Shown: one piece after another, positions 1 through 40,315 of the stretch
How the letters are laid out: each line of letters starts with the position of its first letter
Position numbering within the stretch: the stretch's first letter is position 1
Source: a bacterium
GTDB lineage: Bacteria; Myxococcota_A; Bradymonadia; REDH01
DNA length: 64,000 bases
Direction of reading: 5' to 3'
Assembly: GCA_030427825.1 (NCBI GenBank)
Contig: JAUICO010000006.1
Location: 16-64,015, forward strand
Made by a program: the position numbers and the translations under genes
Notes under the pieces: model-generated
What the model saw: only the letters and a program-made list of their open reading frames with translations
Databases searched by the model: none
Told to the model about the DNA's origin: nothing

Positions 1-1089
1 GCGCAGCGTGCGGCGTAGACGAGTTCCAGAAGGCCCCTCGATGGCGTCACGGACTCGGTGCAGCATGTCAAAGTAGTCAATCTGCCCCTCACGCTGTTGC
101 ACCGTTTCAAGTTGTGCGACCGTAATTGGCAACAGGACCTCAAGCAGCATCCCGATCAGCTGCGGGAGAGCGCTGACCAGATGTTGCCCATGCCGAAACC
201 ACTCAACGTGCCACTCACTCTTGTTGAACGGGCTGCGCAGCTTTCCGGCGTTGGTCAGCGCTGTACCGAAGAGACAATCCCCTGCGTCAGCCAGCACCGC
301 GTCGATCGCGTCGTCGCGAGTTGCGAAGGCCCCCTCGCGCCACGGGGTTGTGCTCTCGAAGTGTGGGAGCGCCGCTTTGGCGACAGAACCGTCCTTGTTG
401 CGGGCGGCGTCGTAGAAGCGCTCCCAGTCGGTGTTGTCGAGGAGCGTGCCGATGGCCTCGCGGACCTCTGACGTTACCCGCCACCCGTAGCGAAGATACT
501 CGTGTGCGCGACCGGCCTGCAGCAGCTCCGTAAAATCGGTCAGCCGCATCACGCTCAAGAGTTCGGCAACGGACTCCCGCACTTCAGGGTCTGTGGCCAG
601 CGCGGTGCGCAGCACCTCACGGAAGGCCTGCTGCACCGCGACGCTTTCATCGACCAGCTCGATGTCGAAGGGCATGCCCGTGTCGATCGCAAGCTCGCTG
701 AGGACGCGGTTGCAGAAGCCGTGGATAGTGCGGATAGACGCGCTGTCGAAGTCGTGGAGCGCGCGCCGAACCCGCCGGCGCGCGAGCGCGTCCAACGCGA
801 TGTGTGCTTCCGTGGGGTCGGCGTCACTCTCGGTCGCGTCACTGAGTCGGCGCAGAAAGCCACGAATTCTCTCTCGCAGCTCCCTGGTTGCCGCCTCAGT
901 GTATGTAACGATCAGAAGCTGGTCGATTGTAGTGTTTGTTTCGACCAGTATGCGCGCAACCAGGCGCTCGATCGTGTAGGTCTTACCGGTGCCGGCGGCC
1001 GCCTCGATCACCGCATGCGCCGCTTCGCCCTGTACTACCGGGATCTCGGCGACAGACTGTGGGATTGCGACTCGTACCAGTGCACTCAT
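1..1089 (-). CDS. recB: RecB-like UvrD-family helicase/nuclease, N-terminal part. The gene runs off the window edge.
   Basis: I translated the minus frame myself (it is not in the ORF table because there is no in-window stop). It gives MSALVRVAIPQSVAEIPVVQGEAAHAVIEAAAGTGKTYTIERLVARIL..., a UvrD-type Walker A (AGTGKT) followed by helicase motif-rich sequence. The ATG at 1089 overlaps the recC stop as ATGA, which is the usual recC-recB order. Confidence 0.6.
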   Translation of the reverse strand, partial: MSALVRVAIPQSVAEIPVVQGEAAHAVIEAAAGTGKTYTIERLVARILVETNTTIDQLLIVTYTEAATRELRERIRGFLRRLSDATESDADPTEAHIALDALARRRVRRALHDFDSASIRTIHGFCNRVLSELAIDTGMPFDIELVDESVAVQQAFREVLRTALATDPEVRESVAELLSVMRLTDFTELLQAGRAHEYLRYGWRVTSEVREAIGTLLDNTDWERFYDAARNKDGSVAKAALPHFESTTPWREGAFATRDDAIDAVLADAGDCLFGTALTNAGKLRSPFNKSEWHVEWFRHGQHLVSALPQLIGMLLEVLLPITVAQLETVQQREGQIDYFDMLHRVRDAIEGPSGTRLRRTLR

Positions 1090-4000
1090 CGGTACGCTCC
1101 CACGAGAATCGCTTCGTACCTTCGAGCGAGCAGCGCTTCAAACTCAGCAGCGTCGGGCACAGGGTACGCCGCGGCGTCGTGCAGGACCCCCCGTGCCTCG
1201 GCGAGCCGGTTGTCACTCTCGAGGACCGTCGTCACGCAGGTCGCAATACTCTCCAGCCGACGCCCACGTGCATATTCGAAGACTGCTTCGATCGGCAGAA
1301 AGCGCTCGTCCCCGCCCTCTCGCGTCAAATCCAGAGCAAGGTTCGCCAACCACACAGCAGCGGACCCGCAGCGTGCGAACTCCGGGCGACTCTCTCGGCA
1401 GAAGGTCAGCTGCTCCCTGCCGGGGCGTCGCCGCTGGGAGCCATCATAGAGAAGGTCGCAGGTGGCTCTCGTGATCACGCCGGCGGCTTCGAGAGCGGCA
1501 GAATCCACCCAGGCACGCGCGAGCTCGGGCTCGTGGTACGAGCGTGTGCCCGAGGTGCGCATCGCATCAAATACCACACATCGCTGCTGGCGCCTCATCC
1601 ACGGCAGGGTGACGCCGGTGATCGAAATCTCGACATCCGGTGCATCCGGAGAGCGCACCTGCAGCGTATCCAGGTGTTCGTCGACGTGTTGGTACCGGTA
1701 GCTGCGTCCAAAACGGAAGACGACCGGTACCTCGCCGAGGTCGATGTTGTCTTCGGCAGCAAGCTGTCGCGCGAGCTCGAAGTAGTCACGCGCCTGGTCC
1801 ACGTCATGATCGAAGAACACCTGGGCCGGCGCCGCACCCCGCTGTTCCAGCGCTCGGAGCTCTCGCTTGTACACGATGGAAGCTCGTTCCGGGTTGCCGC
1901 CGCCTTCGGAGATGGCGGCGCGGACCAGCGCGTTGCGCACGCTCCATCGAAGTGAGGTCGGCTCCCATGGCTCAGGCTCTCGTGTCACACGCCTGAGGCC
2001 GCGCATGCGCTGCGCCGCCCGCGCTTGAATGGGAGCGCAGAGAAAGTCGGCAAGAGAGCGCAGGTCGACCGAAATGCGACGGATGTCCCGACGCTTCCCG
2101 GGGCCCTCCGAGTCCTCAGTTGTCGACGCTGCGGCGTCGCCGGCAGCGACGATGGGCTCTTCGCGTCGCCAAACAGCGTCGAGGGCATCCCGCGCCGCCG
2201 GACCCGCGCTCTCGCGCAGCTCCTGCCAGGTCTCCGGGCGAAATCCGGCACCGAGGGAGCGTCGCAGAGACGCTGCAAGCCGAGCCGCCTGCTGTGTGCG
2301 TGCGAGGTGCGGGCGCCAGGTGGTCTCCGACTCGTCCCGAATCGATGAGGTGGCCTCCACGTGGATGGCCTGCAGGCCGCGGGGGCTGAGGTGTCTGCTC
2401 AGTGTGTGCGTGAATTCCTCAACTACCGACGACTCAGACGAAGCCTCGCCGCTGATGGGGTCTCTGCCCACATAGCTCACCGTCAGCCGCTGCCGCGCGG
2501 ACAGGAGCGCGATCAGGAAGTGATAGCGATCCCGTTCCTGTACGGTGGTTTCTCCAGCTCGACGCCGGTTCGAGCGCACGTCCATCTGGTTGCGCTCGTC
2601 GGCAGAAGGGAACTCCGACTCTCCCAGGCCGGGAACAAACACATAGCGTGCTGGAATCATGTGGGTCGAAGAAAGCGGACCTACGAGGACTCCGGTGTCC
2701 AGCTCGGGAGAGCGCTGGCCGGGGATGCCGCGAAGCGCCCTGGCAAAGAGCTCTCCGGCGGCAACAAAGGGCACGCGACTGTGGTCATGAATGTCGTTGC
2801 CGCATCGGTCGATGGCCTCGAGGGCCCGTCGAAGCGCTGCCCGCTCCCGGTCGCTGTCCGGCCGCAGCTGTTCGCGGCAGAAAGAGACGACTACTGAGCT
2901 CCACTCGGCGGCGCTCATCCGTTTGGTCTCGAGTATCGCCAGCAGTCGCAGAATCCCCCGAACCGCCTGTACGAAGCGGGCGAGAGTGCCTCGTTGCTCG
3001 GGGTGCACCTCCAGGGGCAGCATGCGCGTATCGCTGCCGTCGAACCAACGCTCCTCACCGCTCTCGATCGGGCGCATCGCCGAGCCGAGTATCAGCCGGT
3101 TGAGCGCCTGCTCCCAATGAAAGTTGCCGCGGTGCAGGTAGGTGTCCGCTACCGAGTTCGCGTCTCGCCCGAATAGCGTGTTTGTTTCATCGACCCATCG
3201 CCGCCACACCGCAGCTTCATCGTCGTATCCGTTGCTGTGCGCGAGGGGGATCAGCACGCCGAGCATCTGGCGCCGTGTCAGCTCTGTGTGTGGAAGCGCA
3301 AGCAGTGCCTCGATTGCCTGCACCGCACGGCTGCTGCGATGTAGAGGAGAGTCAACAATGGTGTGGCGTATCCGCGGTTGGCTGCGGAATGCGGACTCCA
3401 GCTGCGCGACATACTCTTCGAGCGAGCCATCGGGAATCATCACACAGAAGTCGCTGAATCGCGCCCCGTCGTCTGCGTGCACAAGGGTCCAGATGTTGTC
3501 CGCGATCAGCTCGCATTCCGCGCGTACAGATGCGCAGGCGATCACGCGAACTGAAGGGTCGCCGGCGCCGACATTGTCGTCGCCGGACGCCGGCGGGGCG
3601 ATGGCTTCGCGGCGCGGCTCCCGAAGAAGAATGTCACGTTGGACCGCGTTCAGCACGGTTTCCGTGCCGGGGACCTCAAAATGTTGCTCAAAGGTGCAGT
3701 CCGTCAGCGTGTTGACGAGGCGTACAAACTCGCGTCCCGGGCGGCCCCAGAGGCGCAGGGGCGGTGTGTCGTCGTCCTCACGTATCGAGAAGGGGTCTTC
3801 GGATTCGGTCCAGCGCGCACCGATCGCGCGGTCGTTGGCGCGCTCATCAAAGCGGGAACGAAGGGACGCGAGCTCGCCCCCGCCAAAGAGCCTGGCGGAT
3901 TCGACGTCCTCCCAATATTCCATGCACGGATTCAACGCATACAGAAAGACATCGCAGCGGTCGCCGAGCTCGTAGACAAACTGCGCCAGTGAGGCGGATA

Positions 4001-4634
4001 CGTTTTCGACGCCGAATACGAAGACCTGCGGCGGCACCGACGCGCCTGCCGCGAGCGCCTGCCGCGCACCCTGTGGCAACGAGACACTCCGCCGATCGCC
4101 CGAGGTGATCGCGGCGCGCCACAAGGTCTTCTGCCACGCCTGCGCGGGATGCTCGACGTCGCTGTCCTCGCCCCGCGCCCACCTCTGCAACATGTCGTCA
4201 CGGCTGAATGAGTACTCTTCAAACAGCGTCGCCAGTCGTCGAGCGAGCTCGGCGCGATGACGCGCGTGTGTGGTTTGTTCCGATCCTCTCGCCAACCAAC
4301 GTGTGATCGGCGCCATCTCCGGACGCTCCATCAGGTGCGGCGATTCCAGAAGAACGAAGAAGCGCAAGAATAGATTGTCGGCGCTGAGTACGGTGACTTC
4401 TTCGTCAACGGACGCGCTCAAGCCCGCGGCGAACTTCACGAGCTGAACGAATCGAAGCCCGGCGGCGATTCCGAGCTTTTCGGCCAGGCGAACCCGCAGC
4501 CAGGACTGTACGATTCGGTTTGGTGTGATGATGGTGATCGGCGCCAGGGGCGCCTGTCGCTGCGCTGTATCTACCCGCGTCGCCAGTGGCTCGACGAGGG
4601 CTTCAAGTCGGTTGGACCATGCCAGCTCAATCAC
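1086..4634 (-). CDS. recC: Exodeoxyribonuclease V gamma subunit (RecC)-like. The listed ORF extends to 4991, but the probable true start is the GTG near 4634.
   Basis: The segment WSNRLEALVEPLATRVD...PITIITPNRIVQSWLRVRLAEKLGIAAGLRFVQL matches the RecC N-terminal signature (HSNRLDVLEAL...ILVQS.GM.QWL...GIAANI.F). There is no Walker A, it is ~1180 aa, and it sits immediately upstream of recB. The first ~119 aa of the listed ORF are S/P/R low-complexity and overlap the divergent gene. Confidence 0.6.
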   Translation of the reverse strand: MIELAWSNRLEALVEPLATRVDTAQRQAPLAPITIITPNRIVQSWLRVRLAEKLGIAAGLRFVQLVKFAAGLSASVDEEVTVLSADNLFLRFFVLLESPHLMERPEMAPITRWLARGSEQTTHARHRAELARRLATLFEEYSFSRDDMLQRWARGEDSDVEHPAQAWQKTLWRAAITSGDRRSVSLPQGARQALAAGASVPPQVFVFGVENVSASLAQFVYELGDRCDVFLYALNPCMEYWEDVESARLFGGGELASLRSRFDERANDRAIGARWTESEDPFSIREDDDTPPLRLWGRPGREFVRLVNTLTDCTFEQHFEVPGTETVLNAVQRDILLREPRREAIAPPASGDDNVGAGDPSVRVIACASVRAECELIADNIWTLVHADDGARFSDFCVMIPDGSLEEYVAQLESAFRSQPRIRHTIVDSPLHRSSRAVQAIEALLALPHTELTRRQMLGVLIPLAHSNGYDDEAAVWRRWVDETNTLFGRDANSVADTYLHRGNFHWEQALNRLILGSAMRPIESGEERWFDGSDTRMLPLEVHPEQRGTLARFVQAVRGILRLLAILETKRMSAAEWSSVVVSFCREQLRPDSDRERAALRRALEAIDRCGNDIHDHSRVPFVAAGELFARALRGIPGQRSPELDTGVLVGPLSSTHMIPARYVFVPGLGESEFPSADERNQMDVRSNRRRAGETTVQERDRYHFLIALLSARQRLTVSYVGRDPISGEASSESSVVEEFTHTLSRHLSPRGLQAIHVEATSSIRDESETTWRPHLARTQQAARLAASLRRSLGAGFRPETWQELRESAGPAARDALDAVWRREEPIVAAGDAAASTTEDSEGPGKRRDIRRISVDLRSLADFLCAPIQARAAQRMRGLRRVTREPEPWEPTSLRWSVRNALVRAAISEGGGNPERASIVYKRELRALEQRGAAPAQVFFDHDVDQARDYFELARQLAAEDNIDLGEVPVVFRFGRSYRYQHVDEHLDTLQVRSPDAPDVEISITGVTLPWMRRQQRCVVFDAMRTSGTRSYHEPELARAWVDSAALEAAGVITRATCDLLYDGSQRRRPGREQLTFCRESRPEFARCGSAAVWLANLALDLTREGGDERFLPIEAVFEYARGRRLESIATCVTTVLESDNRLAEARGVLHDAAAYPVPDAAEFEALLARRYEAILVGAYR

Positions 4635-4812
4635 AAAACGGCGGGGTTGAAGGTGAGCCGAGAGGGTATTGCCGGCGGGCACAGCACGCAAGCAGACGGT
4701 GGATGCCGAAGACGGGGACGTGGCGATGCCTGATGGCTGGGGATGTTGACAGCGGCACCCGGCAGCCACGATTGAGCACAGGCGATTCGAAGTACCCGCA
4801 CAGTCGAAGGTC

Positions 4813-6936
4813 TTGATTACATCACGCACACCGACCCTTGCATACGCACTGAAGGACGCCCTCGGCGAGGGCGCGCTGGACCTGCTCCTTGCCGATGCGA
4901 CGCTCGTCGAGGTGTCGTCCGGCGATGAGATTGTGCGCGAAGGCGAGCACGGCGACGCCCTGTATGTCGTGCTTGAAGGGGACGCGATCATCCACCGACA
5001 CAGCGGGGACGGCCGGGATACCGTTGTAGCGAACTGTGGTCCGGGCGAGCACTTCGGAGAAGCCGCGCTCCTGCCCGGACGCAGCCCTCTTCGCAGCGCC
5101 GGCGTGCGGGCGCGAACCCGGATGCGTCTGCTGAGAATCGAACGCGAGCACTTTCAGCGGGCCCTCGCCGCGGACCGTGCGTTCAAGCGACGCCTTGAGG
5201 AGCGAGCGGATTCACACCGGGCCGCTGCAGTTGTACGCAGCTCGGCGCTGCTGGATGCTCTTGGACTCAGCGACAACGAACGCGCCGCATCGATCGCTTT
5301 CGAGCGAGGCACTTCCCTCTTCGGTGCCGGGGAACCCGCGCGTGCGCTGTATTTCGTCATAAGTGGTGCCGTTGAAGTGTACGTCTCTACGGGCGATGGC
5401 GATCATGTGATCAGTACCCTGGGTGGCGGACATTGCTTCGGTGAAGTCGGGCTTCTCGAGGACGCGCCTCGGACCGCCTCGGCGCGCGTCATCGAGGATG
5501 CCCGGCTGCTGGTGATCTCGGCCGAGCACGTGCGCGCCACAATGTCAGAGTCGCCACGTCTCGCGGGCATTTTTCGCGAACTCAAGCGAAGCTACAAGTT
5601 GCCGCGAAGAGGCACGGTGACTCAGTACGTGAATCGCGTTGATGGCCAGGACGCGATTACGACGGTGTATGAGCTTGAGGGCCATAGGAGCGTTGTCGCG
5701 GTCAGATCGATGCGGGGTGAGTCATTCACCGCGCGCGTTGTCGGCGAGACCGCAACGAATAGGCTTCGGTACGCCGATAGGGAACACGGTGTGGAGCGCA
5801 GCCTGGGGTTGAGTGCATCTGGAGCACTCGTCGAACTCGTTGTGCACGGGCCGTGGATCCAACTCAGCGAAGTGTTTCGGTTGCTGCTTGACGGGGTGGA
5901 GAATGACGCCGGACTCACGGCACGGTTCGAAGAAGCAGGCTCGATCGCTTTGGCCGATGTTAACGAGAGCCCGGGCGTACGCTGTGTGTGTGTAGGGGCC
6001 GGCACGTCGGCAGTGATCGAAGCACTGCGGGTCGGCGATGGGAGCTTTTCAGAGCTTCAAGCCGAGACTGGCTGCGGTACCGTTTGCGGGTCCTGCGTGC
6101 CGGCGATTCGTCACTTCGTTGACAACGGCGTGTGGCGGCCGGCGGTGATCAGCGAAGACCGTTTTCTCGCTGAGGGCACGCGCGAGTTTGCAATCAAACC
6201 ACTTGATGGCCCAGCCGAGCGATTCGTCCCGGGACAACACATCGTGCTGTCCGGACTCGTTGACGGTATGTGGGTTCAACGCGCCTACACACTGACAACG
6301 GCGGGCGATCCGGCACCGGAGTATCGGATTGCGGTCAAGCGTGAACCATCGGGCGTGTTCTCGAACTGGCTTTTCTCTGAGGGTGGTCGCGACGCGATTC
6401 TGCAGGTGAGCTCGCCGCGAGGCAGCTTGTGCTGGAGCGCGGACGACCGCCCGACGGTGTGTTTGGTCGCTGGGATTGGCTGCACACCGGCGCTGGCAAT
6501 CGTTGCGGCTCACACGCAGCGCGAGTCGTCGAGTCCGCTGCACGTCGATTACTCGGCAGGCAATCGTGATTCAGCGGCGGCGCTCGACGCGCTCTCGGCG
6601 GCGGCAGAAGCATGCGGGTGCCTCACGCTGCGTACCCGGTTTACGTCGGATGAGGGGCGGATTGATGAGGCCGCAGTGGCTGCCCTGGCTTCGCAGCACC
6701 CGGCGGCGCAATACGTTATCTGCGGGCCGGAATCGTACGCAGGAGTCGTAATGCGCGGCCTCCGACTTGCGGGGGTTTCGGACGCTGCGATCCACACCGA
6801 GTCTTTCGTGCTGCAAAGTGAATCGCGGGCGACGAAGAACGATGGCGGGGGCGCGGACGTCAGGGGTGGCGGCGCGCGTCGTGCCTCACCCGGTGTCCTC
6901 AAGAGTCTGTTGCGAAGCGTGTTCGGCCGCGGCTGA
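4813..6936 (+). CDS. Fusion protein: two tandem cyclic-nucleotide-binding domains, a BFD-like [2Fe-2S]-binding motif, and a ferredoxin-NADP reductase-like FAD/NAD(P)-binding oxidoreductase domain.
   Basis: Two cNMP-binding-like segments (LVEVSSGDEIVREGEHGDALYVVLEGDAII...FGEAALL and SLFGAGEPARALYFVISGAVEVYV...CFGEVGLL). A C-x-C...C-x-x-C cluster (CVCVGAGT...ETGCGTVCGSCVP). An FNR-like RAYTLTT (RxY[ST]) FAD motif and a VCLVAGIGCTPALAIV NAD-binding motif. TTG start. Confidence 0.7.
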   Translation: MITSRTPTLAYALKDALGEGALDLLLADATLVEVSSGDEIVREGEHGDALYVVLEGDAIIHRHSGDGRDTVVANCGPGEHFGEAALLPGRSPLRSAGVRARTRMRLLRIEREHFQRALAADRAFKRRLEERADSHRAAAVVRSSALLDALGLSDNERAASIAFERGTSLFGAGEPARALYFVISGAVEVYVSTGDGDHVISTLGGGHCFGEVGLLEDAPRTASARVIEDARLLVISAEHVRATMSESPRLAGIFRELKRSYKLPRRGTVTQYVNRVDGQDAITTVYELEGHRSVVAVRSMRGESFTARVVGETATNRLRYADREHGVERSLGLSASGALVELVVHGPWIQLSEVFRLLLDGVENDAGLTARFEEAGSIALADVNESPGVRCVCVGAGTSAVIEALRVGDGSFSELQAETGCGTVCGSCVPAIRHFVDNGVWRPAVISEDRFLAEGTREFAIKPLDGPAERFVPGQHIVLSGLVDGMWVQRAYTLTTAGDPAPEYRIAVKREPSGVFSNWLFSEGGRDAILQVSSPRGSLCWSADDRPTVCLVAGIGCTPALAIVAAHTQRESSSPLHVDYSAGNRDSAAALDALSAAAEACGCLTLRTRFTSDEGRIDEAAVAALASQHPAAQYVICGPESYAGVVMRGLRLAGVSDAAIHTESFVLQSESRATKNDGGGADVRGGGARRASPGVLKSLLRSVFGRG

Positions 6937-6945
6937 GAGCCGTTC

Positions 6946-7704
6946 TCAGCCCGCGGCTTCAAGGGGCGCTATTGACACCTCTGTCGTGGGTGCCGGGGTC
7001 TGTTTCATGCGAAAATGCAGGAGGTAGAGGTAGACCAGATCCAACACGAGGATAGTGACACACAGGAAGGTGAGAAAGGCCCAATGCTCAATGTGTGGAT
7101 TCATCAGCGGCAGAAACACGTGGGCACCGATGGCCGTCCCGAGGGTTCCAAGCATCTTGAGCCATGCGCCGGCGACGCTGAGGCCGCGACCATCTTCGCG
7201 TTGAAAGAACGCCCAGATGAAGAGGACGCTCATCACAAGGTTGATGAAGAAGGCGTCGATGAGCGCGAGGCGGTCCTGAAAGGTGATCACGAAGGTCAGC
7301 TGCCCGGCGATGCCGATAACAATCGCCGCCGGCACCCACACACGGAACCACTTTCGCAACCAGTAGTTCTTCTGCATGGCGGCTCCATAGGTCCAAAGCT
7401 GCCAGACCAGCAGGCAGTCGAGCAAGAGCCAGCCCATGTTCAGGGCCGGCCACAGCGTGTTGAAGTTCGGCAGGATCAGATACATCGACTCCCAGCCGAA
7501 GTTCAGGCACATCGCGATCGCCGGCACCGCCGGAGCCTTGTCACGGAATCCTTTCCTGAGAAAGCAGATGTAGGCGAGGATCCATAGCACGCAGCCGAAA
7601 GAGCAGACGAGGTGGTACCAGGCCCAAAGGTCCAGGGCCTCGGGCGGGGCATTCTCAAAGTTTGGAAGATACGCGTTCAACATCGTCTCTGGCTCGCGGC
7701 GCAA
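6946..7704 (-). CDS. Multi-pass integral membrane protein of unknown function.
   Basis: 252-aa ORF with 6-7 hydrophobic helices and many W/F/L residues. No recognisable catalytic motif. Confidence 0.5.
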   Translation of the reverse strand: MRREPETMLNAYLPNFENAPPEALDLWAWYHLVCSFGCVLWILAYICFLRKGFRDKAPAVPAIAMCLNFGWESMYLILPNFNTLWPALNMGWLLLDCLLVWQLWTYGAAMQKNYWLRKWFRVWVPAAIVIGIAGQLTFVITFQDRLALIDAFFINLVMSVLFIWAFFQREDGRGLSVAGAWLKMLGTLGTAIGAHVFLPLMNPHIEHWAFLTFLCVTILVLDLVYLYLLHFRMKQTPAPTTEVSIAPLEAAG

Positions 7705-8013: not shown

Positions 8014-9234
8014 TTGTTACCTGCCAATGCACCGGTCCCGGACCGCTTCAGTCGCCGGGATGAAGCAGCGCGCATGTTCGGCGAGGACGCGCGCCGCTTC
8101 GCACAGTACATGATGCAGGGCGACCCCCTGGCTGATGCGCTCGCGTTGCGGCTGTCGAAGGGGCGAATCGGAGCGTCGCAGGCATTGGTGGACCGCGCGT
8201 TGCGCGAAGGCGTCGACCGACTGGGCGTGATTCCGGGCGAGCTTCGCGCCCTGCTGGATGAAGTTGAGCAGGTTCCGGACTGGGTAGACTTTGACAGAAT
8301 CCACCACGGTGCAGTGGCGGTTCAACGCCTGGGGCCGGCTGCCATGCTGATTCTCTCGGCGTGGTCGCTGATGAACAGCTATCACAGCGGACCGGCAGTC
8401 AAGGCACTGATGTTCACCGGAGAGTTAACGACTCGCGCGCCGCGTCGCCTGGCTGAGACGGGACGATTCGTCACGGAAGTGACGCAGGTGGATGGTCTCA
8501 GACGCTTTGGAAGAGGCCTTGAGATTACGGTGAAGGTACGCATCATGCATGCGCAGGTTCGCCGGATGATTCACGCAGATGCCTCTGTTTGGAATGCCTC
8601 TGCATGGGGCGCGCCGATCAATCAGGCGGACATGCTGGGGACGATTGTCGAGCTGTCTTTCCTGGTGATCGAAGGGGCCCGAAAGCTGGGTTTTCGGTTC
8701 ACAAGGAAGGAGCGCGAGGACATTGTTCACTTGTGGCGCTACGTCGGCCATCTTTCCGGGGTTTCACCCTGGCTGTTGGAGCATCTGGATTCCTACGAGC
8801 GTGGGTGGGAGTTCTCGCAGATGATCCGTATGGTGCAGGCGGGCTCCGACGACGACTCAGTCGCACTCGCGGCTGCGTTGAGAGACGCGAGCTACCAATC
8901 CGTATCAAGCAGGTTTGAGCGGATGATGTTGCCGGTTGTGACTCGACTGCATAACGGCCTAGTCTGGTCATTCAACGGGGATGAGATTGCGCGCGACTTG
9001 AAGACTCCGAACCGAGCGTGGCGGCATGCACGCCTGCCGATACGAGCCGTGATCAGCGTGCTCGAGCTGGTGCGAATATGTGTGCCGGGGATGTCTGCGG
9101 CACTGTCCAGGCGACGAAACGCCGCCGGCCTGGCGCGGATCTCATCGATGCTTGAGAATCGAGAGCCTGCGTTCACCGTGGGTTCGTCGACAGAGCGCCT
9201 TCTCTCGACCACGCCGCACCGGGCGATTGAGTAG
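8014..9234 (+). CDS. DUF2236 / MpaB-like oxygenase-family domain protein (tentative).
   Basis: 406 aa, TTG start 15 nt after AAGGAG. The RIMHAQVRRMIH segment and overall alpha-helical composition recall the DUF2236 family. No other motif identified. Confidence 0.4.
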   Translation: MLPANAPVPDRFSRRDEAARMFGEDARRFAQYMMQGDPLADALALRLSKGRIGASQALVDRALREGVDRLGVIPGELRALLDEVEQVPDWVDFDRIHHGAVAVQRLGPAAMLILSAWSLMNSYHSGPAVKALMFTGELTTRAPRRLAETGRFVTEVTQVDGLRRFGRGLEITVKVRIMHAQVRRMIHADASVWNASAWGAPINQADMLGTIVELSFLVIEGARKLGFRFTRKEREDIVHLWRYVGHLSGVSPWLLEHLDSYERGWEFSQMIRMVQAGSDDDSVALAAALRDASYQSVSSRFERMMLPVVTRLHNGLVWSFNGDEIARDLKTPNRAWRHARLPIRAVISVLELVRICVPGMSAALSRRRNAAGLARISSMLENREPAFTVGSSTERLLSTTPHRAIE

Positions 9235-9325: not shown

Positions 9326-10171
9326 ATGCTCACTCTCGCTCAGCGAATCCAAACACCGCCGCTGAAGTGCCAGGGCATAAAGACGAAGCTCCTGCCTTTC
9401 ATCGCTGCATCGATTGACTGGGATTACGCCGGGACGTGGATTGAACCCTTCGGGGGCTCTGGAGTGGTGGCGCTGAACATCGCGCCGCCGCGGGTTCGCT
9501 ACTCGGACGCGAATCCACATATTGTGAACTTGTATGCCGGGATTCGCGACGGGCGGGTGACGCCGGAGTCGGTACGTGTACACCTTGAACGCGAAGGCGC
9601 ACAGCTTCTCGAAATCGGCGAAAGTCACTACTACGCGATTCGATCGCGATTCAATGCGTCGCATGATGCACACGACTTTATCTTCCTAAATAGGAGCTGT
9701 TTCAACGGCCTGATGCGCTTTAACCGTAGCGGCGGTTTCAACGTTCCTTTCTGCCGCAAGCCGGAGCGATTCCGACCTGCGTACGTCACGCGCATCGTGA
9801 ACCAGGTCGCGGCTATGGCGATGGCGATGCAGCGATCAAGTTGGGAGATCCTTTGTCTGGATTGGAGGGAATGCGTCGCGACCGCCGTCGCCGGCGATCT
9901 TGTGTACATGGATCCGCCGTATATCGGCCGTCACGCTGACTACTACACACAATGGGATGAGAGCGAAGCCCAGGCGCTTGCGGCGTGGGCGCGCAGTGCG
10001 CCCTGCGGATTCGCCTGTTCGATGTGGGCAAAGACGCAATATCGCACCAACACACACCTCGAAGAGGACTGGTCCTGGGCACGCACCGTGACCACGGAGC
10101 ACTTCTTTCATCTGGGCAGCTACGAGAAGCTGCGCGGCGGAGTCACCGAGGCCCTGCTGCTGCCCGCATAG
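9326..10171 (+). CDS. Dam-like (D12 class) N6-adenine DNA methyltransferase, an orphan with no restriction-enzyme partner.
   Basis: EPFGGSG (motif I; E. coli Dam has EPFVGAGSV). FLNRSCFNGLMRFNRSGGFNVPF matches Dam LYLNRYGYNGLCRYNLRGEFNVPF. DPPY catalytic motif (VYMDPPYI). ATG start. GC content slightly below the flanks. Confidence 0.85.
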   Translation: MLTLAQRIQTPPLKCQGIKTKLLPFIAASIDWDYAGTWIEPFGGSGVVALNIAPPRVRYSDANPHIVNLYAGIRDGRVTPESVRVHLEREGAQLLEIGESHYYAIRSRFNASHDAHDFIFLNRSCFNGLMRFNRSGGFNVPFCRKPERFRPAYVTRIVNQVAAMAMAMQRSSWEILCLDWRECVATAVAGDLVYMDPPYIGRHADYYTQWDESEAQALAAWARSAPCGFACSMWAKTQYRTNTHLEEDWSWARTVTTEHFFHLGSYEKLRGGVTEALLLPA

Positions 10172-10354: not shown

Positions 10355-12037
10355 CTACTCGTCGCTGATCGTCAGCTCGGCGCCCATCAGCACCGGCTTC
10401 ATCACCTTGCCTGAGGCATTGCGCGGAAGTGGTTCTCGTCGAATCTCCCAGTGTGCCGGAATCTTGAAATACGCGAGCTTTGATTCCAGCGCCTGTTTGA
10501 TCTCATCGATATCCGGTGTGGCGCCGGGTAGGGGAACCAGGATGGCCTTGCACTCCTGCCCCAGCTCCTCGTGCGGGACGCCTACGACGGCCACCTCGTC
10601 GATTCCCGGCAGCAGCGCGAGCTGCGCCTCGATCTCTGCAGGGTAGATGTTCTCGCCTCCCCGAATGATCAGATCAGTGCGCCGGGACGCGATGTGCAGT
10701 CGCCCGTCGCGCAGGAAGCCGATGTCGCCGGTGCGCAACCACCGGTCACCGGTGATTCGCTCCGCGGTCGCCTCCGGATTGCGCCAGTAGCCCTGCATGA
10801 CAAGAGGAGAGCGAATCCAGATTTCGCCGATCTCACCGTCTGGCAGGCCGACCCCGTGGTCGTCGCGTATGCTCACCTCCACTGTCGGTAGCGGGCGCCC
10901 CACAGACGTGGGAAACTGTGCGAGCTCGTCGCCGAAAGTGATGGTTGCCAGCGCGCAGGCTTCCGTCAGCCCGTATCCCACGGCAGCGGTGGTTCTCACG
11001 CTCGGCATGCGCGTTTTGAGTTCCGTCATCAGCGCCTCAGAGACCGGTGAGCCGCCGAGCCCGACAAAGCGCATGCTGCTGAGGTCGTATTGGTCGAAGT
11101 CCGGATGAGCGAGGACGCGATGCACCATCGTGGCGGTCGGCCCCCAGCCCGAGACCCGCTCGCGCTGAATGATCTCGAGGATTTCGCCGGCATCGAAGCG
11201 TCCGACGGTCCACACCGTTTTGGCGCCTACGACCATGCGGGTGATAATTCCGGCGTAGAGCCCGGACACATGAAAGAGCGGCGTACTCACCAGGGCGCAG
11301 TTTTCTTCTGTCTGAACCACATCAACACCGCGCAGCTGGTCGAGCATGCTCGCACGTGCGCCGTGAAATATCTGAATCCCGGTCAGAGCAATGATGTTGC
11401 GGTGTGTGGCTACAATGCCCTTCGGTCGCCCGGTCGTGCCGCTGCTGTAGAGAATCGCCGCCGGGTCGTCTTCGTCGATGTGTGTTTGGCAGAGCGCCGC
11501 GTCCATGTGTGGACGGGTCAGGGCGTCAAAGCCCTCTTCAATCACGACCGTCGGACACATCTCTCTCGCTTCGGGAGCCCGCGCCAGTCGCTTGCGATCT
11601 ACGAAGAGGACCTTTGGTACACAGTCTTTCAGAGCAAACAGGATCTCGTCACGCACCCACCAGCCGTTCAGCCCGACAGGGAGAGCGCCGAGGCTGATAG
11701 CGGCCCAGAAAGCGATGACCCACTCCGGCTTGTTTGAGGCCAGAATCGCAACTCGGTCACCCTTTTGAACGCCAAAGCGCTCACGCAATGCGGCCGCGGT
11801 GGCGCACACCAACCGATAATGTTCTGCGTAGGTGATTCTGCGATCGCCGAAGATGACGTATTCGCGTTCACCGAAGCCTGCGCTTGCGGCGAGTACGTCT
11901 CGCAGCGAGCGGTGGCGGCTTCGAAACACAGACATCGGGACACCGGCGACATCTTCGATGTGTGTTTCGAAGTGGCTTCCGGGTGCCAGCAACGCGGCCT
12001 CAATCCCGGCAAGGTCCGCCGCAACGTCAGGTGACAT
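10355..12037 (-). CDS. AMP-dependent synthetase/ligase (acyl-CoA synthetase family).
   Basis: YSSGTTGRPKG AMP-binding signature. ~560-aa two-domain adenylate-forming enzyme layout. Its start overlaps the upstream AKR stop by 11 nt. Confidence 0.85.
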   Translation of the reverse strand: MSPDVAADLAGIEAALLAPGSHFETHIEDVAGVPMSVFRSRHRSLRDVLAASAGFGEREYVIFGDRRITYAEHYRLVCATAAALRERFGVQKGDRVAILASNKPEWVIAFWAAISLGALPVGLNGWWVRDEILFALKDCVPKVLFVDRKRLARAPEAREMCPTVVIEEGFDALTRPHMDAALCQTHIDEDDPAAILYSSGTTGRPKGIVATHRNIIALTGIQIFHGARASMLDQLRGVDVVQTEENCALVSTPLFHVSGLYAGIITRMVVGAKTVWTVGRFDAGEILEIIQRERVSGWGPTATMVHRVLAHPDFDQYDLSSMRFVGLGGSPVSEALMTELKTRMPSVRTTAAVGYGLTEACALATITFGDELAQFPTSVGRPLPTVEVSIRDDHGVGLPDGEIGEIWIRSPLVMQGYWRNPEATAERITGDRWLRTGDIGFLRDGRLHIASRRTDLIIRGGENIYPAEIEAQLALLPGIDEVAVVGVPHEELGQECKAILVPLPGATPDIDEIKQALESKLAYFKIPAHWEIRREPLPRNASGKVMKPVLMGAELTISDE

Positions 12038-13019
12038 CGTTGCCGATCAGCATCACCTCTTCGGTGCGGTCCGTGGCAGGTGGCGGTGTCGGCCACATGT
12101 CTGAGATCTCCTGATACAGGTCGTCGCTGATTCGATAGTCCGCGCCGTCGAGAAGCGGGCGCATCTGCTCAACGGTGCGGGCACCGATGATGGGGGCTGT
12201 CACCGCCGGGTGGGTGCGCGCCCACGCCACGGCCAATGTCGCGGGGTGCACGCCGGCCTTGTTTGCGATCCCGACAAACTGTTCAGCGGCGGCGTAATAG
12301 TGCGGGTCCGAATACCGCGCCCTGTACATTTTGTTTGACACCAGGCGCCCCGAAGGCGGTCGCAGGTCTTTGCCGTACTTGCCGGTAAGCAATCCACCGG
12401 CGAGGGGGCCGTAGGCAAGTACGCCGAGTCCCTCGGACTGCGCCATCGGCAGAATCTCTACTTCGGCCTGGCGCTTCACCGCGCTGTACATAGGCTGAGT
12501 GCAAACCGGCCGGGCCCAGCCGTACTTCTCACACATGTCGACGGCCTTCTGCGTCTGCCAGGCCGAAAAGTTGCTGACCGCCGGGTAGAGGATCTTTCCC
12601 TGCCGAACGAGGTCGTCCACCGCCCGCATCGTCTCGTCGAGAGCGGTCATGCTGTCGTAGCGGTGCAGGAAGAAGACATCGATGTAGTCGGTCCCAAGAC
12701 GCCTGAGGCTGGCTTCAACAGCCCGCACCAGATGGTAGCGCGACAGCCCCCAGTCATTCGGTCCCTTTCCGGTGGGAAAGTACGCCTTGGTGGTCAGCAC
12801 GATGTCATCCCGCGACCGCCCGATCAGCTTGCCAAGCAGCAGTTCACTGCGCCCCTTCCCGTAGATATCGGCGCAGTCGAAGGTGTTGATCCCGGCGTCC
12901 ATCGCCGCCCGAAACAGAGCGGCCGAAGCCTGGTCGTCTGCGTCGCCGCCGAAGGCCATCGTACCGAATACCAGCGCCGATACTTTGACGCCCGTGCGCC
13001 CCAGCAGCTTGTACTGCAT
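12027..13019 (-). CDS. Aldo/keto reductase. The true start is the ATG at 13019; the listed ORF has a 186-aa spurious extension.
   Basis: MQYKLLGRTGVKVSALVFGTMAFGG...DTFDCADIYG...LHRYD is the AKR signature. First gene of an operon with the acyl-CoA synthetase. Confidence 0.85.
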   Translation of the reverse strand: MQYKLLGRTGVKVSALVFGTMAFGGDADDQASAALFRAAMDAGINTFDCADIYGKGRSELLLGKLIGRSRDDIVLTTKAYFPTGKGPNDWGLSRYHLVRAVEASLRRLGTDYIDVFFLHRYDSMTALDETMRAVDDLVRQGKILYPAVSNFSAWQTQKAVDMCEKYGWARPVCTQPMYSAVKRQAEVEILPMAQSEGLGVLAYGPLAGGLLTGKYGKDLRPPSGRLVSNKMYRARYSDPHYYAAAEQFVGIANKAGVHPATLAVAWARTHPAVTAPIIGARTVEQMRPLLDGADYRISDDLYQEISDMWPTPPPATDRTEEVMLIGNDVT

Positions 13020-13112
13020 CGTCAGTTCCCCAGGTTCGAAATTGGTGTGCGCAACAGCTACACGATCCGAAGTCGCCGGGGAATGCCGCCGCGCGATCGG
13101 GTGCTTACGCGA

Positions 13113-13247
13113 AGTTGCGAGACTGCTCGCTGCGCGATCAGGACTACCGCTTTCGCGCGGTTGCCACCGGCAACCGGGCTCAATTGCTTCTCGCGCTCTG
13201 CAAAGGGGCTTTCGCCCCTTTGAACCCCGGCGGAAAGCTTCGCTTTC
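13113..13247 (-). repeat. Copy C (long form, minus orientation) of the structured element.
   Basis: The reverse complement reads GGAAAGCgaaGCTTTCC / caaaggggcGAAAgcccctttg / GCGAGAagcaattgagcccggttgccggtggcaaccg...cagTCTCGCaa. It is in the sense orientation for the AKR operon and ends ~96 nt before the AKR ATG. Confidence 0.8.
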
Positions 13248-13374
13248 CTGAAGAGCGTCTTGAGCTGCGGACACTCCTGAGAATAGCAGTGGCCGAGCTT
13301 CGAGAATGTGACGTCGAGCACTATAGCGGCAATCATCTTGCGCGAGTGCGAATCGAACTACTGAGGAGACCCTG

Positions 13375-13722
13375 ATGGCGTGGCAGATTGTTCGAGTGGT
13401 CGTGAGTGTGGCGGTGATCATTGCGGTGAGCGAGGTGGCTTCCCGCAGCTCGACCCTGGGTGCGGTGCTGGCGTCGATCCCCCTGGTCAGCGTCCTGGGC
13501 ATGATGTGGCTGTACCTGGACACCGGCGAGACGGAAACGGTGGCGGCTCTGAGCCGTGACATCGTCTGGCTGGTCATCCCCTCACTTGTCCTCTTTGTTC
13601 TGCTGCCGATCCTGCTTGAGCGCGATTGGGGCTTCTGGACCGCTCTGGCGACGTCGATCGCGGCAACGGTGGGATGCTACCTGCTCACCATCGCCGCGAT
13701 GAGCCGACTTCGAGGTGGGTGA
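13375..13722 (+). CDS. Small hydrophobic membrane protein (3-4 TM helices) of unknown function.
   Basis: 115 aa, essentially all hydrophobic helices. No motif. Confidence 0.45.
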   Translation: MAWQIVRVVVSVAVIIAVSEVASRSSTLGAVLASIPLVSVLGMMWLYLDTGETETVAALSRDIVWLVIPSLVLFVLLPILLERDWGFWTALATSIAATVGCYLLTIAAMSRLRGG

Positions 13723-32149: not shown

Positions 32150-32284
32150 TTGTGTCTCCTGGGATGTAGCGACTGCACATCGAATCGATGCGTAGTCAGC
32201 GACGGGTGTACTGCGATCGCCGGAGCCGCGACTCCGTTGATGTCTTCTACTGACGCGCGAAACTGCAGAGCATTCTGCACGGAC

Positions 32285-32315
32285 GCTTTGGGGAAGCAAG
32301 AAGGCAGCTTCCCTG
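32285..32315 (-). terminator. Possible hairpin terminator after the cox-III/IV pair.
   Basis: GGGAAGC-9 nt-GCTTCCC perfect 7-bp stem, ~70 nt downstream of the subunit-IV stop. There is no U-tract, so it is weak. Confidence 0.25.
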
Positions 32316-40217: not shown

Positions 40218-40292
40218 ACTCGACCCCCCCAAAGGGTCAAGGGAACTTCGTTCCCTTGCGGGGGTGCAGGGGGCAGAGCCCCCGCCCACGCC
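40218..40292. repeat. GC-rich double-hairpin element in the 5' region of the cytochrome gene.
   Basis: CAAGGGAAC-ttcg-GTTCCCTTG (9-bp stem) followed by GGGGGcagagCCCCC. Possibly a distant relative of the 7.8-13.9 kb element family (shared ccaaagggt and gcagagc strings). Confidence 0.4.
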
Positions 40293-40315
40293 TGCGCCAT
40301 CACGGAGGTCTACAT

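Follow-up and report, generated by a model that had tools for sequence, protein, structure and literature searches.

What kind of enzyme is encoded by a gene that joins two cNMP-binding (CNB) domains to a BFD-type [2Fe-2S] domain and an FNR-type FAD/NAD(P)H module, to what acceptor does it pass electrons, and could a cyclic nucleotide control that transfer? These questions are raised by a 707-aa protein encoded near one end of the 64-kb stretch of DNA that was analysed (hereafter the window). The gene, its border with the neighboring recC and the parts of its product are as follows.

1086-4682, minus strand: recC (public gene call)
4683-4812, no strand: intergenic region of 130 bp, common to the gene and the divergent recC (gene calls on the same contig)
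4813-6936, plus strand: whole gene, TTG start, stop at 6934-6936, 707 aa (ORF list and translation)
4849-5238, plus strand: cNMP-binding domain A, residues ~13-142 (Pfam cNMP_binding; PKA-R/PKG matches by profile and fold)
5053-5103, plus strand: phosphate-binding cassette of domain A, F81-G-E83 ... R94-S-A96 (family alignment)
5239-5592, plus strand: cNMP-binding domain B, residues ~143-260 (best Pfam stretch 162-246)
5437-5484, plus strand: phosphate-binding cassette of domain B, F209-G-E211 ... P-R220-T-A-S223 (family alignment)
5593-5703, plus strand: junction and β segment, residues 261-297, family-specific, including Y261-x-L-P264-x-R-G267
5704-5952, plus strand: divergent Rubredoxin_C-like domain, residues ~298-380 (profile matches, hhalign)
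5977-6120, plus strand: BFD-like [2Fe-2S] domain, residues ~389-436 (Pfam Fer2_BFD; predicted ligands C391, C393, C425, C428)
6136-6432, plus strand: FNR-type FAD-binding β-barrel, residues ~442-540, with R490-x-Y492-T493 (Pfam FAD_binding_6; Foldseek 4eh1)
6445-6810, plus strand: NAD(P)H-binding Rossmann sub-domain, residues ~545-666 (NCBIfam flavohaemoprotein and BenC alignments to residue 666; PDB profiles)
6811-6933, plus strand: C-terminal tail, a Gly/Ala-rich disordered linker and the conserved amphipathic peptide V-L-K-S-L-L-R-S-V-F-G-R-G

Domain architecture of the 707-aa protein

The reading frame at 4813-6936 is the one given in the original prediction; it is matched exactly in the ORF list and is likewise called on the plus strand of the same contig by a public gene caller, and an identical 707-aa protein (P0001) is present in public assemblies. 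The domain matches of this protein exceed chance by far, and each domain proposed for it at the outset (two cNMP-binding, a BFD-type [2Fe-2S], and an FNR-type FAD/NAD(P)H) is upheld by Pfam, NCBIfam, PDB profiles, and Foldseek, so that by its sequence the architecture is that of a stand-alone CNB-CNB-RubC-like-BFD-FNR reductase. The gene was also thought to share a control region of ~180 bp with recC. A shared intergenic region does exist, but by the public recC call it measures 130 bp; a sigma-70-like promoter and an inverted repeat were both sought in it and neither was found, and scans of the flanks for promoters, terminators, and inverted repeats returned nothing exceeding shuffle expectation. 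A functional meaning for this region, and with it a link to recBCD, was dropped because recBCD adjoins the reductase gene at none of the relatives' loci examined.

Pfam recognizes cNMP_binding in two stretches of the protein (E=2.1e-44), the tandem aligns as a single unit with PKA-R in a PDB profile search (profile residues 4-250 against PKA-R residues 37-271), and Foldseek matches the predicted model to PKA-R and PKG at E ~1e-18. The three methods thus agree with the expectation that the N-terminal repeats are cNMP-binding folds of the PKA-R/PKG-like tandem type, and the opposite outcome was not seen. By these matches both domains are of the eight-stranded β-barrel type with a cassette of the form G-E-x(n)-R-x-A-(T/S), and the Gly-Glu...Arg-x-Ala-(Thr/Ser) residues are retained in 64-72 of 72 family members in either cassette: in domain A, G82 and R94 in 72/72, E83 in 71/72, and A96 in 69/72; in domain B, G210 in 72/72, E211 in 65/72, R220 in 64/72, and T/S223 in 66/72. 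The likeness to PKA-R and PKG lies in these two consecutive CNB domains with canonical cassette residues. Unlike those proteins, the reductase has no inhibitor/pseudosubstrate segment, docking/dimerisation domain, or kinase partner, and its output is an intramolecular redox module. A CRP-like transcription factor was ruled out by the absence of an HTH domain: Pfam finds no HTH family in the protein at E<=1, and the NCBIfam CRP and FtrB matches are confined to the CNB part and fall far under their cut-offs.

The ~130-aa segment that follows, confidently folded in the AF2 model, was at first said to have no recognizable family. This holds for Pfam, which returns no match to it even at E<=1, but its C-terminal two thirds are probably homologous to a Rubredoxin_C-type domain. 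Pfam does not detect Rubredoxin_C (PF18267) directly in the 707-aa protein, and the evidence for homology, which is strong, comes from transitive profiles: a family profile without the BFD domain matches the Rubredoxin_C region of Pyr_redox_2-Rubredoxin_C-BFD proteins at 40-51 bits, and hhalign pairs the middle domain with Rubredoxin_C at a probability of 99.2% (E=8e-20, 83 columns). In NirB-like Pyr_redox_2-Rubredoxin_C-Fer2_BFD flavoproteins a Rubredoxin_C-type domain likewise precedes BFD, and the NCBIfam NirB alignment spans residues 373-436 of the reductase, which nonetheless lacks the two-dinucleotide-binding Pyr_redox_2 domain and obtains its flavin from the FNR-type module C-terminal to BFD. 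The preceding junction (residues 261-297) consists of predicted strands with a pLDDT of ~74-89; it has no Pfam match, and a profile of the segment retrieves family members only. G267 is nearly invariant (>=90% in the 72-sequence alignment A2), and Y261 and P264 are conserved at >=90% in the 15-sequence alignment A3.

Pfam places Fer2_BFD at residues 391-434 (E=4.2e-6, above the gathering score), and C391, C393, C425, and C428 (C-x-C ... C-x2-C) are invariant in 72/72 sequences, while a fifth cysteine, C421, is not conserved. Directly C-terminal to this cluster domain lie the FNR-type FAD and NAD(P)H sub-domains. The former is matched by Pfam FAD_binding_6 (residues 446-539, E=1.5e-6), with R490 invariant and Y492 and T493 conserved at >=90% in the 72-sequence alignment. 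The latter has no match to Pfam NAD_binding_1 and is covered in a PDB profile search by flavohaemoglobins, BenC, and MmoC, as well as by the reductase part of NCBIfam flavohaemoprotein (residues 442-666, 5.4e-27); its Rossmann motifs G554-x-G556-x-T-P559, C637-G638, and terminal aromatic F665 are conserved. The AF2 model reaches a pLDDT of 86 with the 72-sequence alignment and of 50 with a 2-sequence alignment, and Foldseek superimposes the model, NAD(P)H sub-domain included, on 4eh1 with a TM of 0.82-0.84 and an rmsd of 2.3-2.9 Å. Fer2_BFD, FAD_binding_6, the NAD(P)H sub-domain, and their motifs bear out the proposal of a flavin/iron-sulfur electron-transfer protein, as predicted from sequence.

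The FNR modules of flavohaemoglobin and BenC are alike in FAD β-barrel, NAD(P)H Rossmann fold, and motifs. In contrast to flavohaemoglobin, the reductase has no globin, and its NCBIfam match comprises profile positions 155-393 only, at 94.7 bits against a cut-off of 432. The Fer2 domain of BenC, MmoC, and PDR is plant-type, whereas the cluster of the reductase is of BFD type and N-terminal; Pfam finds no PF00111-type Fer2 domain in the 707-aa protein, and 2pia and 6laa match the FNR part only in the PDB profile search. Bfd itself is a small protein of ~65 aa genetically linked to bacterioferritin, whereas BFD is here a domain inside a 707-aa protein.

A widespread family of electron donors and its acceptors

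The gene product is one stand-alone version of an electron-donor module that is widespread among bacteria and has hardly been studied. An exhaustive HMMER search returned 575 representatives at E<=1e-30, the best 150 of which are nearly all full-length, with the family profile aligning over positions ~20-700, and clustering at 50% identity leaves at least ~145 full-length representatives, spread over many phyla. Overall identity among the compared sequences is only 23-39%. The fusion is therefore not the rarity it was first taken for. Extreme rarity had also been suggested by word-indexed searches with the protein and with the 72-sequence profile, which yielded almost only cNMP-domain proteins, and was overturned by the exhaustive search. 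It had been allowed that the architecture might prove to be a well-annotated widespread family; widespread it is, but its members carry automatic composite names only.

About half of the best 150 representatives (~70) are stand-alone proteins. The fusions in this set are to a His-rich 4-TM domain, possibly a cytochrome b (29), P450 (13), NO synthase (NOS) oxygenase (8), CXXCH multihaem c (8), FA desaturase (2), and NIR_SIR nitrite/sulfite reductase (1), and one family member is fused to Trp dioxygenase. The His-rich 4-TM fusions have a multihaem cytochrome c gene alongside. A P450 or desaturase gene adjoins each of the seven nearest stand-alone relatives that were checked: a divergent P450 gene at P0002/L001, P0026/L164, P0233/L165, and P0237/L166, a P450 gene downstream at L004 and P0235/L169, and an FA desaturase gene downstream at P0025/L163. 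Together, the fusions and these neighbors therefore point to a redox partner of oxygenases.

The same survey bears on a role in iron metabolism, in which a fused Bfd and ferredoxin-reductase would feed bacterioferritin or ferric chelates, a parallel to the separate Fpr/Bfd/BfrB system of Pseudomonas aeruginosa on which the Rivera laboratory has reportedly worked. The [2Fe-2S] domain is of the bacterioferritin-associated ferredoxin type, the FNR module belongs to the class that reduces such ferredoxins, and the His-rich 4-TM fusions recall NOX/ferric-reductase logic. Bacterioferritin, siderophore, and iron-uptake genes, however, were found neither beside the gene nor beside any relative examined, no ferritin-family gene occurs among the ORFs scanned in the window, and the fusion partners and neighbors are oxygenases and cytochromes. 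An iron-mobilising or ferric reductase is accordingly considered very improbable.

Judged by sequence, the characterized relative of the module is the N-terminal reductase of the self-sufficient NOS of Sorangium cellulosum (scNOS), which is said to have been described by Agapie et al. in PNAS in 2009. In the published accounts consulted, the N-terminal part of scNOS and of the Silicibacter enzyme SiliNOS is a 2Fe-2S/FAD/NAD(P)H reductase and the C-terminal part the NOS oxygenase, and scNOS is reported to move electrons from NAD(P)H through FAD and 2Fe-2S to its acceptor (PMC3701330, PMC4436077). NOS-fused family members share this published order, contrary to the initial statement that no characterized enzyme has it. 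P0028 and ~25 other NOS fusions match the 707-aa protein at ~350-420 bits; these matches run the length of the module and take in the middle domain as well as both CNB domains. All but a few NOS-fused members also carry PF00027 (cNMP_binding), whereas the scNOS and SiliNOS accounts consulted refer to 2Fe-2S/FAD/NAD(P)H only and make no mention of cNMP-binding domains or regulation (PMC3701330, PMC4436077). Compared with scNOS by that description, the reductase is alike in placing BFD-type 2Fe-2S, FAD, and NAD(P)H in the same order, N-terminal to the acceptor in the fused enzymes, and differs in having no fused oxygenase: it ends 41 residues past the FNR module with no attached acceptor (NOS oxygenase) domain, must act in trans, and bears a tethered C-terminal peptide instead.

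A second likeness is to the reductases of class IV/VII self-sufficient P450s (P450RhF/CYP116B), which in the available part of their description pass electrons from NAD(P)H through flavin and [2Fe-2S] to a P450 and are often fused to it (PMC7260179). These PDR-like reductases contain FMN and a C-terminal plant-type ferredoxin, are located on the C-terminal side of the P450, and lack a sensor domain, whereas members of the present family combine FAD with a BFD-type cluster, lie N-terminal to the P450 when fused, and carry two CNB domains. To our knowledge, few types of natural redox partner are known to P450 and NOS enzymologists. With at least ~145 diverged clusters, a BFD-type cluster joined to an FNR module, and many acceptor classes, the family represents a new class of native redox partner, of practical use for supplying "orphan" P450s.

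Putative control of electron supply by cyclic nucleotides

The conserved sensor domains are the potentially surprising part of the module. The reading that we regard as probable is that of a stand-alone reductase donating to an oxygenase, whose CNB domains most likely bind cAMP or cGMP and gate the electron supply. Such a soluble reductase would transfer electrons from NAD(P)H to the FAD of the FNR-type module, on to the BFD-type [2Fe-2S] cluster, and from there to a separate haem or di-iron oxygenase, and would correspond, in free form, to the module that scNOS and many uncharacterized P450, desaturase, and cytochrome fusions carry in covalent linkage. Binding of a cyclic nucleotide, most likely cAMP or cGMP, to the PKA-R-like CNB pair would be transmitted across the conserved helix/Y-x-L-P-x-R-G junction and through the Rubredoxin_C-like domain, and would shift the [2Fe-2S] domain with respect to either flavin or acceptor. 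The second messenger would thereby set the supply of electrons and, with it, the activity of the oxygenase, a functional analogue of the Ca2+/calmodulin gating of mammalian NOS. Gating by a cyclic nucleotide is plausible because both sensor domains have kept the residues predicted to contact the ligand.

CNB folds may also bind ligands other than cNMPs or nothing at all, as with CooA, NtcA, and trypanosomatid PKA-R among those with other ligands. The reductase might correspondingly be constitutive, its CNB domains being vestigial, having only a scaffolding or dimerising role, or recognizing haem, 2-oxoglutarate, a nucleoside, or some other ligand. Position 97 of domain A, Ser/Asn/Thr in most members, is Gly in this protein, and the cyclic-nucleotide-independent PKA-R structures 6flo and 6hyq are among the fold matches. 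The searchable literature yielded no paper on cNMP binding or gating for any family member and no experiment tying one to a cyclic nucleotide, and scNOS is reported to be active in vitro in secondary accounts that make no mention of added cNMP (PMC3701330, PMC4436077). On the other hand, both domains retain the ribose-phosphate contacts (Gly, Glu, Arg, Ala, Thr/Ser) at an overall identity of only 23-39%, which is hard to explain unless the ligand bears a phosphate, and the cluster of one relative includes a Guanylate_cyc (class III cyclase) gene, on the same strand and two genes upstream. A constitutive reductase is thus judged rather unlikely.

Gated electron supply may extend well beyond this protein. 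We put forward tentatively, and with slightly more doubt than conviction, that CNB-CNB-RubC-BFD(-FNR) is a portable second-messenger-gated electron-supply cassette, fused to or encoded beside many acceptors across phyla (P450s, NO synthases, desaturases, tryptophan dioxygenase, nitrite/sulfite reductase, and trans-membrane cytochrome chains), by which cAMP or cGMP would act post-translationally, at the step of electron delivery, on oxygenase chemistry and even on extracellular electron export. The His-rich 4-TM fusions with their adjacent multihaem cytochrome c gene give a hint of such cNMP-controlled electron export across the membrane. The physiological inputs that stimulate bacterial NOS enzymes have been stated to be unknown (PMC4436077). 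If true, the cassette proposal would supply the input that switches on bacterial self-sufficient NOS and would constitute a bacterial counterpart to the Ca2+/calmodulin control of mammalian NOS; the regulation is directly testable.

Local context and the C-terminal tail

Searches of the 64-kb window with tblastn and three partner P450 queries found no P450, Pfam found no P450, desaturase, or NOS on its large ORFs, and no nucleotide cyclase was found among the ORFs scanned. That the window lacks the oxygenase classes seen beside relatives counts against the oxygenase-partner explanation. An MpaB/Lcp-like oxygenase gene does lie 1 kb downstream of the reductase, at 8014-9234, but neither it nor the neighboring Pyr4-like cyclase recurs at other family loci or as a fusion partner, which likewise counts against that explanation. 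The partner in the host genome could be this MpaB/Lcp-like oxygenase, or a P450 or desaturase encoded beyond the window. As one stand-alone member with a partner not identifiable from the window, the single locus is a modest finding, and interest is greater, moderate to high, for the family.

The stand-alone form, with no obvious acceptor in the window and with a conserved tethered C-terminal peptide suggestive of docking to another protein, would also suit a redox-responsive signalling protein, in which NAD(P)H/NAD(P)+ or O2 is signalled to the CNB domains by the flavin/Fe-S state and the output is, for example, cNMP buffering or sequestering, or protein recruitment via the peptide. Yet the module is the only reductase present in the fusions with P450, NOS, and desaturase, all of which are strictly donor-dependent, and Pfam and NCBIfam find no typical output domain (HTH, kinase, or GGDEF), which makes a signalling role highly unlikely next to that of an electron donor. 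Within the tail, the linker is predicted at a pLDDT <50, and the motif L-x-x-L-(L/F)-x-S-(L/V/F)-F-G is common to the six nearest stand-alone relatives and missing in four more distant stand-alone members compared. As a side observation, an SrpI-like shell gene adjoins the P0002 locus and the tethered C-terminal peptide resembles a cargo tag, but neither the window nor any other locus yielded an encapsulin.

Domain organization of the protein

At the positions originally given, 4813-6936 (+), lies an uninterrupted ORF of 707 codons with a TTG start, and gene calls on two public contigs yield a protein (P0001) identical to the one encoded in the window. Its divergent arrangement with recC was also borne out by the gene calls, although the shared region measures 130 bp instead of the ~180 bp first proposed (recC is publicly called at 1086-4682 (-)), and a scan of these 130 bp returned neither a consensus promoter nor a palindrome. 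The domains anticipated from the sequence, namely two cyclic nucleotide-binding (CNB) domains, a BFD-type [2Fe-2S] domain and a flavin domain, were all recovered by Pfam.

Pfam matches in the 707-residue protein
Two stretches: cNMP_binding (E=2.1e-44)
Residues 391-434: Fer2_BFD (27.5 bits against a cut-off of 26)
Residues 446-539: FAD_binding_6

The NAD(P)H sub-domain has no match to the Pfam NAD_binding_1 model, but an FNR-type FAD/NAD(P)H module extends to residue ~666 according to NCBIfam, a PDB profile search and the AlphaFold model. In NCBIfam the protein aligns to the reductase half of flavohaemoprotein, BenC, PaaE and MmoC, proteins of these types were matched again when the PDB was searched with the family profile, and the AlphaFold model (pLDDT 86) fits the FAD/NAD module of a Vibrio NO dioxygenase (4eh1) with a TM-score of 0.82-0.84 and an rmsd of 2.3-2.9 Å. 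The lack of an HTH domain rules out a CRP-type regulator, and assignments as a Bfd, a PDR-like (P450RhF-type) reductase or a flavohaemoglobin were rejected on membership features.

The cofactor sites are strongly conserved in an alignment of 72 sequences sharing 23-39% identity with the window protein. All four cysteines of the BFD domain (C391, C393, C425, and C428) are invariant, in a C-x-C ... C-x2-C arrangement with 31 residues between the pairs, a spacing that matches E. coli Bfd. The R-x-Y-T flavin motif of the FNR module comprises an invariant R490 with Y492 and T493 in at least 90% of sequences, and little or no variation is seen in G554-x-G556-x-T558-P559, in C637-G638 or in the terminal aromatic residue, F665. 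Conservation extends to the cassettes of the first CNB domain (G82 in 72/72, E83 in 71/72, R94 in 72/72, and A96 in 69/72) and the second (G210 in 72/72, E211 in 65/72, R220 in 64/72, and T/S223 in 66/72), and the two domains align jointly, as a single unit, to PKA regulatory subunits and PKG by both profile and fold. Judged from this alignment, both phosphate-binding cassettes are canonical and evidently under selection. A purely structural role for the CNB domains, or a ligand other than a cNMP, would fit the cNMP-independent homologues of PKA-R that the fold search returned; the conservation of the cassettes in both domains opposes this alternative, which is considered unlikely, if far from negligible.

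The region between the CNB domains and BFD had been described as belonging to no recognisable family. This holds for Pfam, which finds no match in residues 255-389 with the threshold relaxed to E≤1, but not for residues ~298-380, which are probably a divergent Rubredoxin_C-like domain homologous to the one N-terminal to BFD in flavoproteins of the NirB type. When metagenomes were scanned with the middle region plus BFD as seed, a second family of ~660-700-aa proteins came up as well, organized by Pfam as Pyr_redox_2, Rubredoxin_C and Fer2_BFD, with DUF4405 in some. The assignment follows from the match of a middle-region profile without BFD to the Rubredoxin_C stretch of these proteins (40-51 bits) and from the hhalign comparison of the two alignments (probability 99.2%, E=8e-20, 83 columns). 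In NCBIfam, residues 373-436 align to NirB, and a model built from a deep alignment folds the middle region into a compact domain with seven strands and two helices (block-mean pLDDT ~74-95). Residues 261-297 are family-specific and contain a conserved Y-x-L-P-x-R-G junction behind the last CNB helix (G267 in at least 90% of the 72-sequence alignment; Y261 and P264 in at least 90% of a 15-sequence alignment).

The C-terminus (window 6811-6933, residues 667-707) consists of a Gly/Ala-rich linker, modelled with low confidence, and after it the amphipathic peptide VLKSLLRSVFGRG. An L-x-x-L-(L/F)-x-S-(L/V/F)-F-G motif with a flexible Pro/Ala/Gly-rich linker is common to the six nearest stand-alone members (the window protein, P0002, P0025, P0026, P0233, and P0237) and missing from the four more distant ones compared. 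It may tentatively be regarded as a docking or membrane-association peptide of a trans-acting form.

Distribution of the family and its fusion partners

The architecture is not rare. No more than one or two full-length relatives came out of two word-indexed searches, an artefact of selecting candidates through common cNMP-domain words; when 1.84 billion cluster representatives were scanned exhaustively with HMMER, 575 proteins emerged at E≤1e-30. The best 150 of these (all E<1e-90) cover profile positions ~20-690 in nearly all cases. Named source organisms include Polyangiaceae, Rubrivivax, an alphaproteobacterium, Planctomycetota, Candidatus Sericytochromatia and Ardenticatenales, and thus span several phyla; the members carry automatic names only ("cyclic nucleotide-binding domain-containing protein" at NCBI, and a further automatic name at JGI), and the window protein reaches the cut-off of no NCBIfam model. 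The family is therefore widespread and not curated. Roughly 70 of the best 150 are stand-alone proteins of 640-730 aa, as in the window, and the remainder carry extra domains.

Domains fused to family members (counts refer to the best 150)
Cytochrome P450: 13
NOS oxygenase: 8, plus ~30 further clusters in the wider listing
Fatty-acid desaturase: 2
His-rich four-helix membrane domain (~170 aa, two classes): 29
Membrane-anchored multihaem cytochrome c with five CXXCH motifs: 8
Nitrite/sulfite reductase NIR_SIR domains: P0072 (1253 aa)
Tryptophan 2,3-dioxygenase (PF03301): P0241 (929 aa)
N-terminal FAD-oxidoreductase/halogenase-like domain: P0133, P0172
N-terminal sulfotransferase with C-terminal P450: P0055 (1607 aa)

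The Polyangiaceae orthologue (locus L003) is a 1287-aa reductase-P450 fusion. A role as a redox sensor in place of an electron donor is contradicted by fusions to enzymes with an obligate need for a reductase, and is very improbable.

For the His-rich membrane domains, matches to prokaryotic cytochrome b561 stay below threshold (E=0.013 and 0.78). A multihaem cytochrome c gene precedes or follows these fusions in most loci examined (L094, L096, L097, L099, L101-L105, L116, and L117; P0032, P0036, P0090 and others), and together they look like a CNB-equipped trans-membrane electron export chain. Four relatives keep the CNB-CNB-Rubredoxin_C-BFD unit with FNR replaced or missing: in L107 (8399-11692), L130 (4057-7683), and L158 (3002-5749) the C-terminal regions of ~390-470 aa match no Pfam family, and in L122 (9176-11707) the unit is joined without a gap to a P450 domain. 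It is therefore the sensor-plus-ferredoxin unit that seems to be a conserved, mobile core.

Gene neighbours and proposed function

Each of the nearest stand-alone relatives, ranked by similarity to the window protein, adjoins an oxygenase gene.

Oxygenase genes beside stand-alone relatives
P0002 (L001): P450, divergent
P0026 (L164): P450, divergent
P0233 (L165): P450, divergent, gap 26 nt
P0237 (L166): P450, divergent, gap 26 nt
L004: P450, directly downstream
P0235 (L169): P450, directly downstream
P0025 (L163): fatty-acid desaturase, downstream

The partner P450s of unrelated loci share 22-56% identity. These adjoining oxygenases, combined with fusions in which the module is the only reductase for reductase-requiring enzymes, constitute a redox-partner signature. 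A Bfd/Fpr-like reductase that mobilises iron is a further alternative, and a very remote one, as ferritin and iron genes are lacking at all loci examined.

An electron-donor role is thus the preferred reading, and the closest described system is the nitric oxide synthase of Sorangium cellulosum (scNOS), which needs no separate reductase for catalysis because it carries one at its N-terminus, with a 2Fe-2S cluster and FAD- and NAD-binding motifs; Silicibacter NOS has the same architecture (PMC3701330; PMC4436077), and PMC4436077 states that the physiological inputs stimulating enzymes of this type are unknown. The NOS-fused family members have exactly the scNOS domain order, with PF00027 (cNMP_binding) in all listed but a few. 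Homology to this reductase portion runs along the entire window protein, which would work in the same way, except that scNOS-type enzymes carry a covalently attached oxygenase and it has none. Electrons would pass from NAD(P)H through FAD and [2Fe-2S] to a separate oxygenase. Binding of cAMP or cGMP to the tandem CNB unit would move the B/C helix and the junction/Rubredoxin_C-like domain, so that BFD would be repositioned towards the flavin or the acceptor and electron flow would be gated. The donor role is very probable, cNMP gating is somewhat favoured, and the two combined are reasonably likely. The original prediction of a cyclic nucleotide-gated electron-transfer enzyme is thus partly supported, the unusual fusion itself being confirmed.

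The searchable literature, which covers few subscription journals, was silent on the stand-alone family, on its P450, desaturase and cytochrome fusions and on the CNB domains. The window protein may be a stand-alone, trans-acting form of the scNOS-type reductase that is apparently undescribed, an earlier mention being possible. The family would place a conserved second-messenger sensor on an electron-supply cassette serving NOS, P450s, desaturases and trans-membrane cytochrome chains, a proposal that is cheaply testable; the window locus is an ordinary-looking member, and the family is of greater interest than the locus.

Two genes upstream of the stand-alone P0231 (L167/L168), and on the same strand, is a class III nucleotide cyclase (Guanylate_cyc, 3216-4580 (+)); a multihaem cytochrome c gene comes after P0231. 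This cyclase, the sole one seen near a family member among the loci inspected, is a single supportive case and not a pattern.

Several loci have features of their own. L095 carries two stand-alone paralogues ~5 kb apart on one contig (2025-4103 (-) and 9179-11254 (+)) with a FAD-oxidoreductase/halogenase-like gene between them, beside one copy; the same domain type is fused in P0133 and P0172. The alphaproteobacterial homologue at L005 (9869-11889 (+)) is split into overlapping ORFs of 515 and 318 aa at the BFD/FAD boundary, reflecting either a long-read assembly frameshift or a pseudogene, and an ORF resembling the P450 queries (phmmer E=4e-125) stops 6 nt upstream. In L001, the locus of P0002, the homologue closest in architecture, an SrpI-like family 2A encapsulin shell gene (3-635 (-), E=3e-56) lies beside the divergent P450. 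The linker and short conserved C-terminal peptide of the stand-alone reductases superficially resemble an encapsulin cargo tag; a search of the window and of the loci other than L001 returned no encapsulin gene.

Candidate partners in the window

The 64-kb window encodes no P450, desaturase or NOS. The genes downstream of the reductase are as follows.

Genes downstream of the reductase gene
6946-7704 (-) (public start: 6946-7683): Pyr4-like transmembrane terpene cyclase (PF25129, E=3e-22), convergent with the reductase gene
8014-9234 (+): MpaB/Lcp-family oxygenase (PF09995, E=2e-18), 1 kb downstream of the reductase gene
10355-13577 (-): AMP-binding enzyme and aldo/keto reductase, beyond this pair

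The MpaB/Lcp-family oxygenase could be the acceptor, but this is no more than a guess, because neither it nor the cyclase recurs at other family loci or as a fusion; the gene for the true partner may lie elsewhere in the genome. The cyclase and oxygenase genes are mutually divergent and, since the two families are chiefly familiar from meroterpenoid pathways of fungi, could form a small bacterial terpenoid-tailoring unit.

A D12-class N6-adenine DNA methyltransferase (9326-10171 (+)) has no recognised restriction endonuclease among the nearby ORFs scanned, and is possibly an orphan methylase. Farther along, a single protein combining pre-peptidase C-terminal (PPC) and caspase (Peptidase_C14) domains (29756-32299 (-)) and a 629-aa protein with cytochrome c554/c7-like multihaem motifs (38475-40364 (-)) appear unrelated to the reductase gene.
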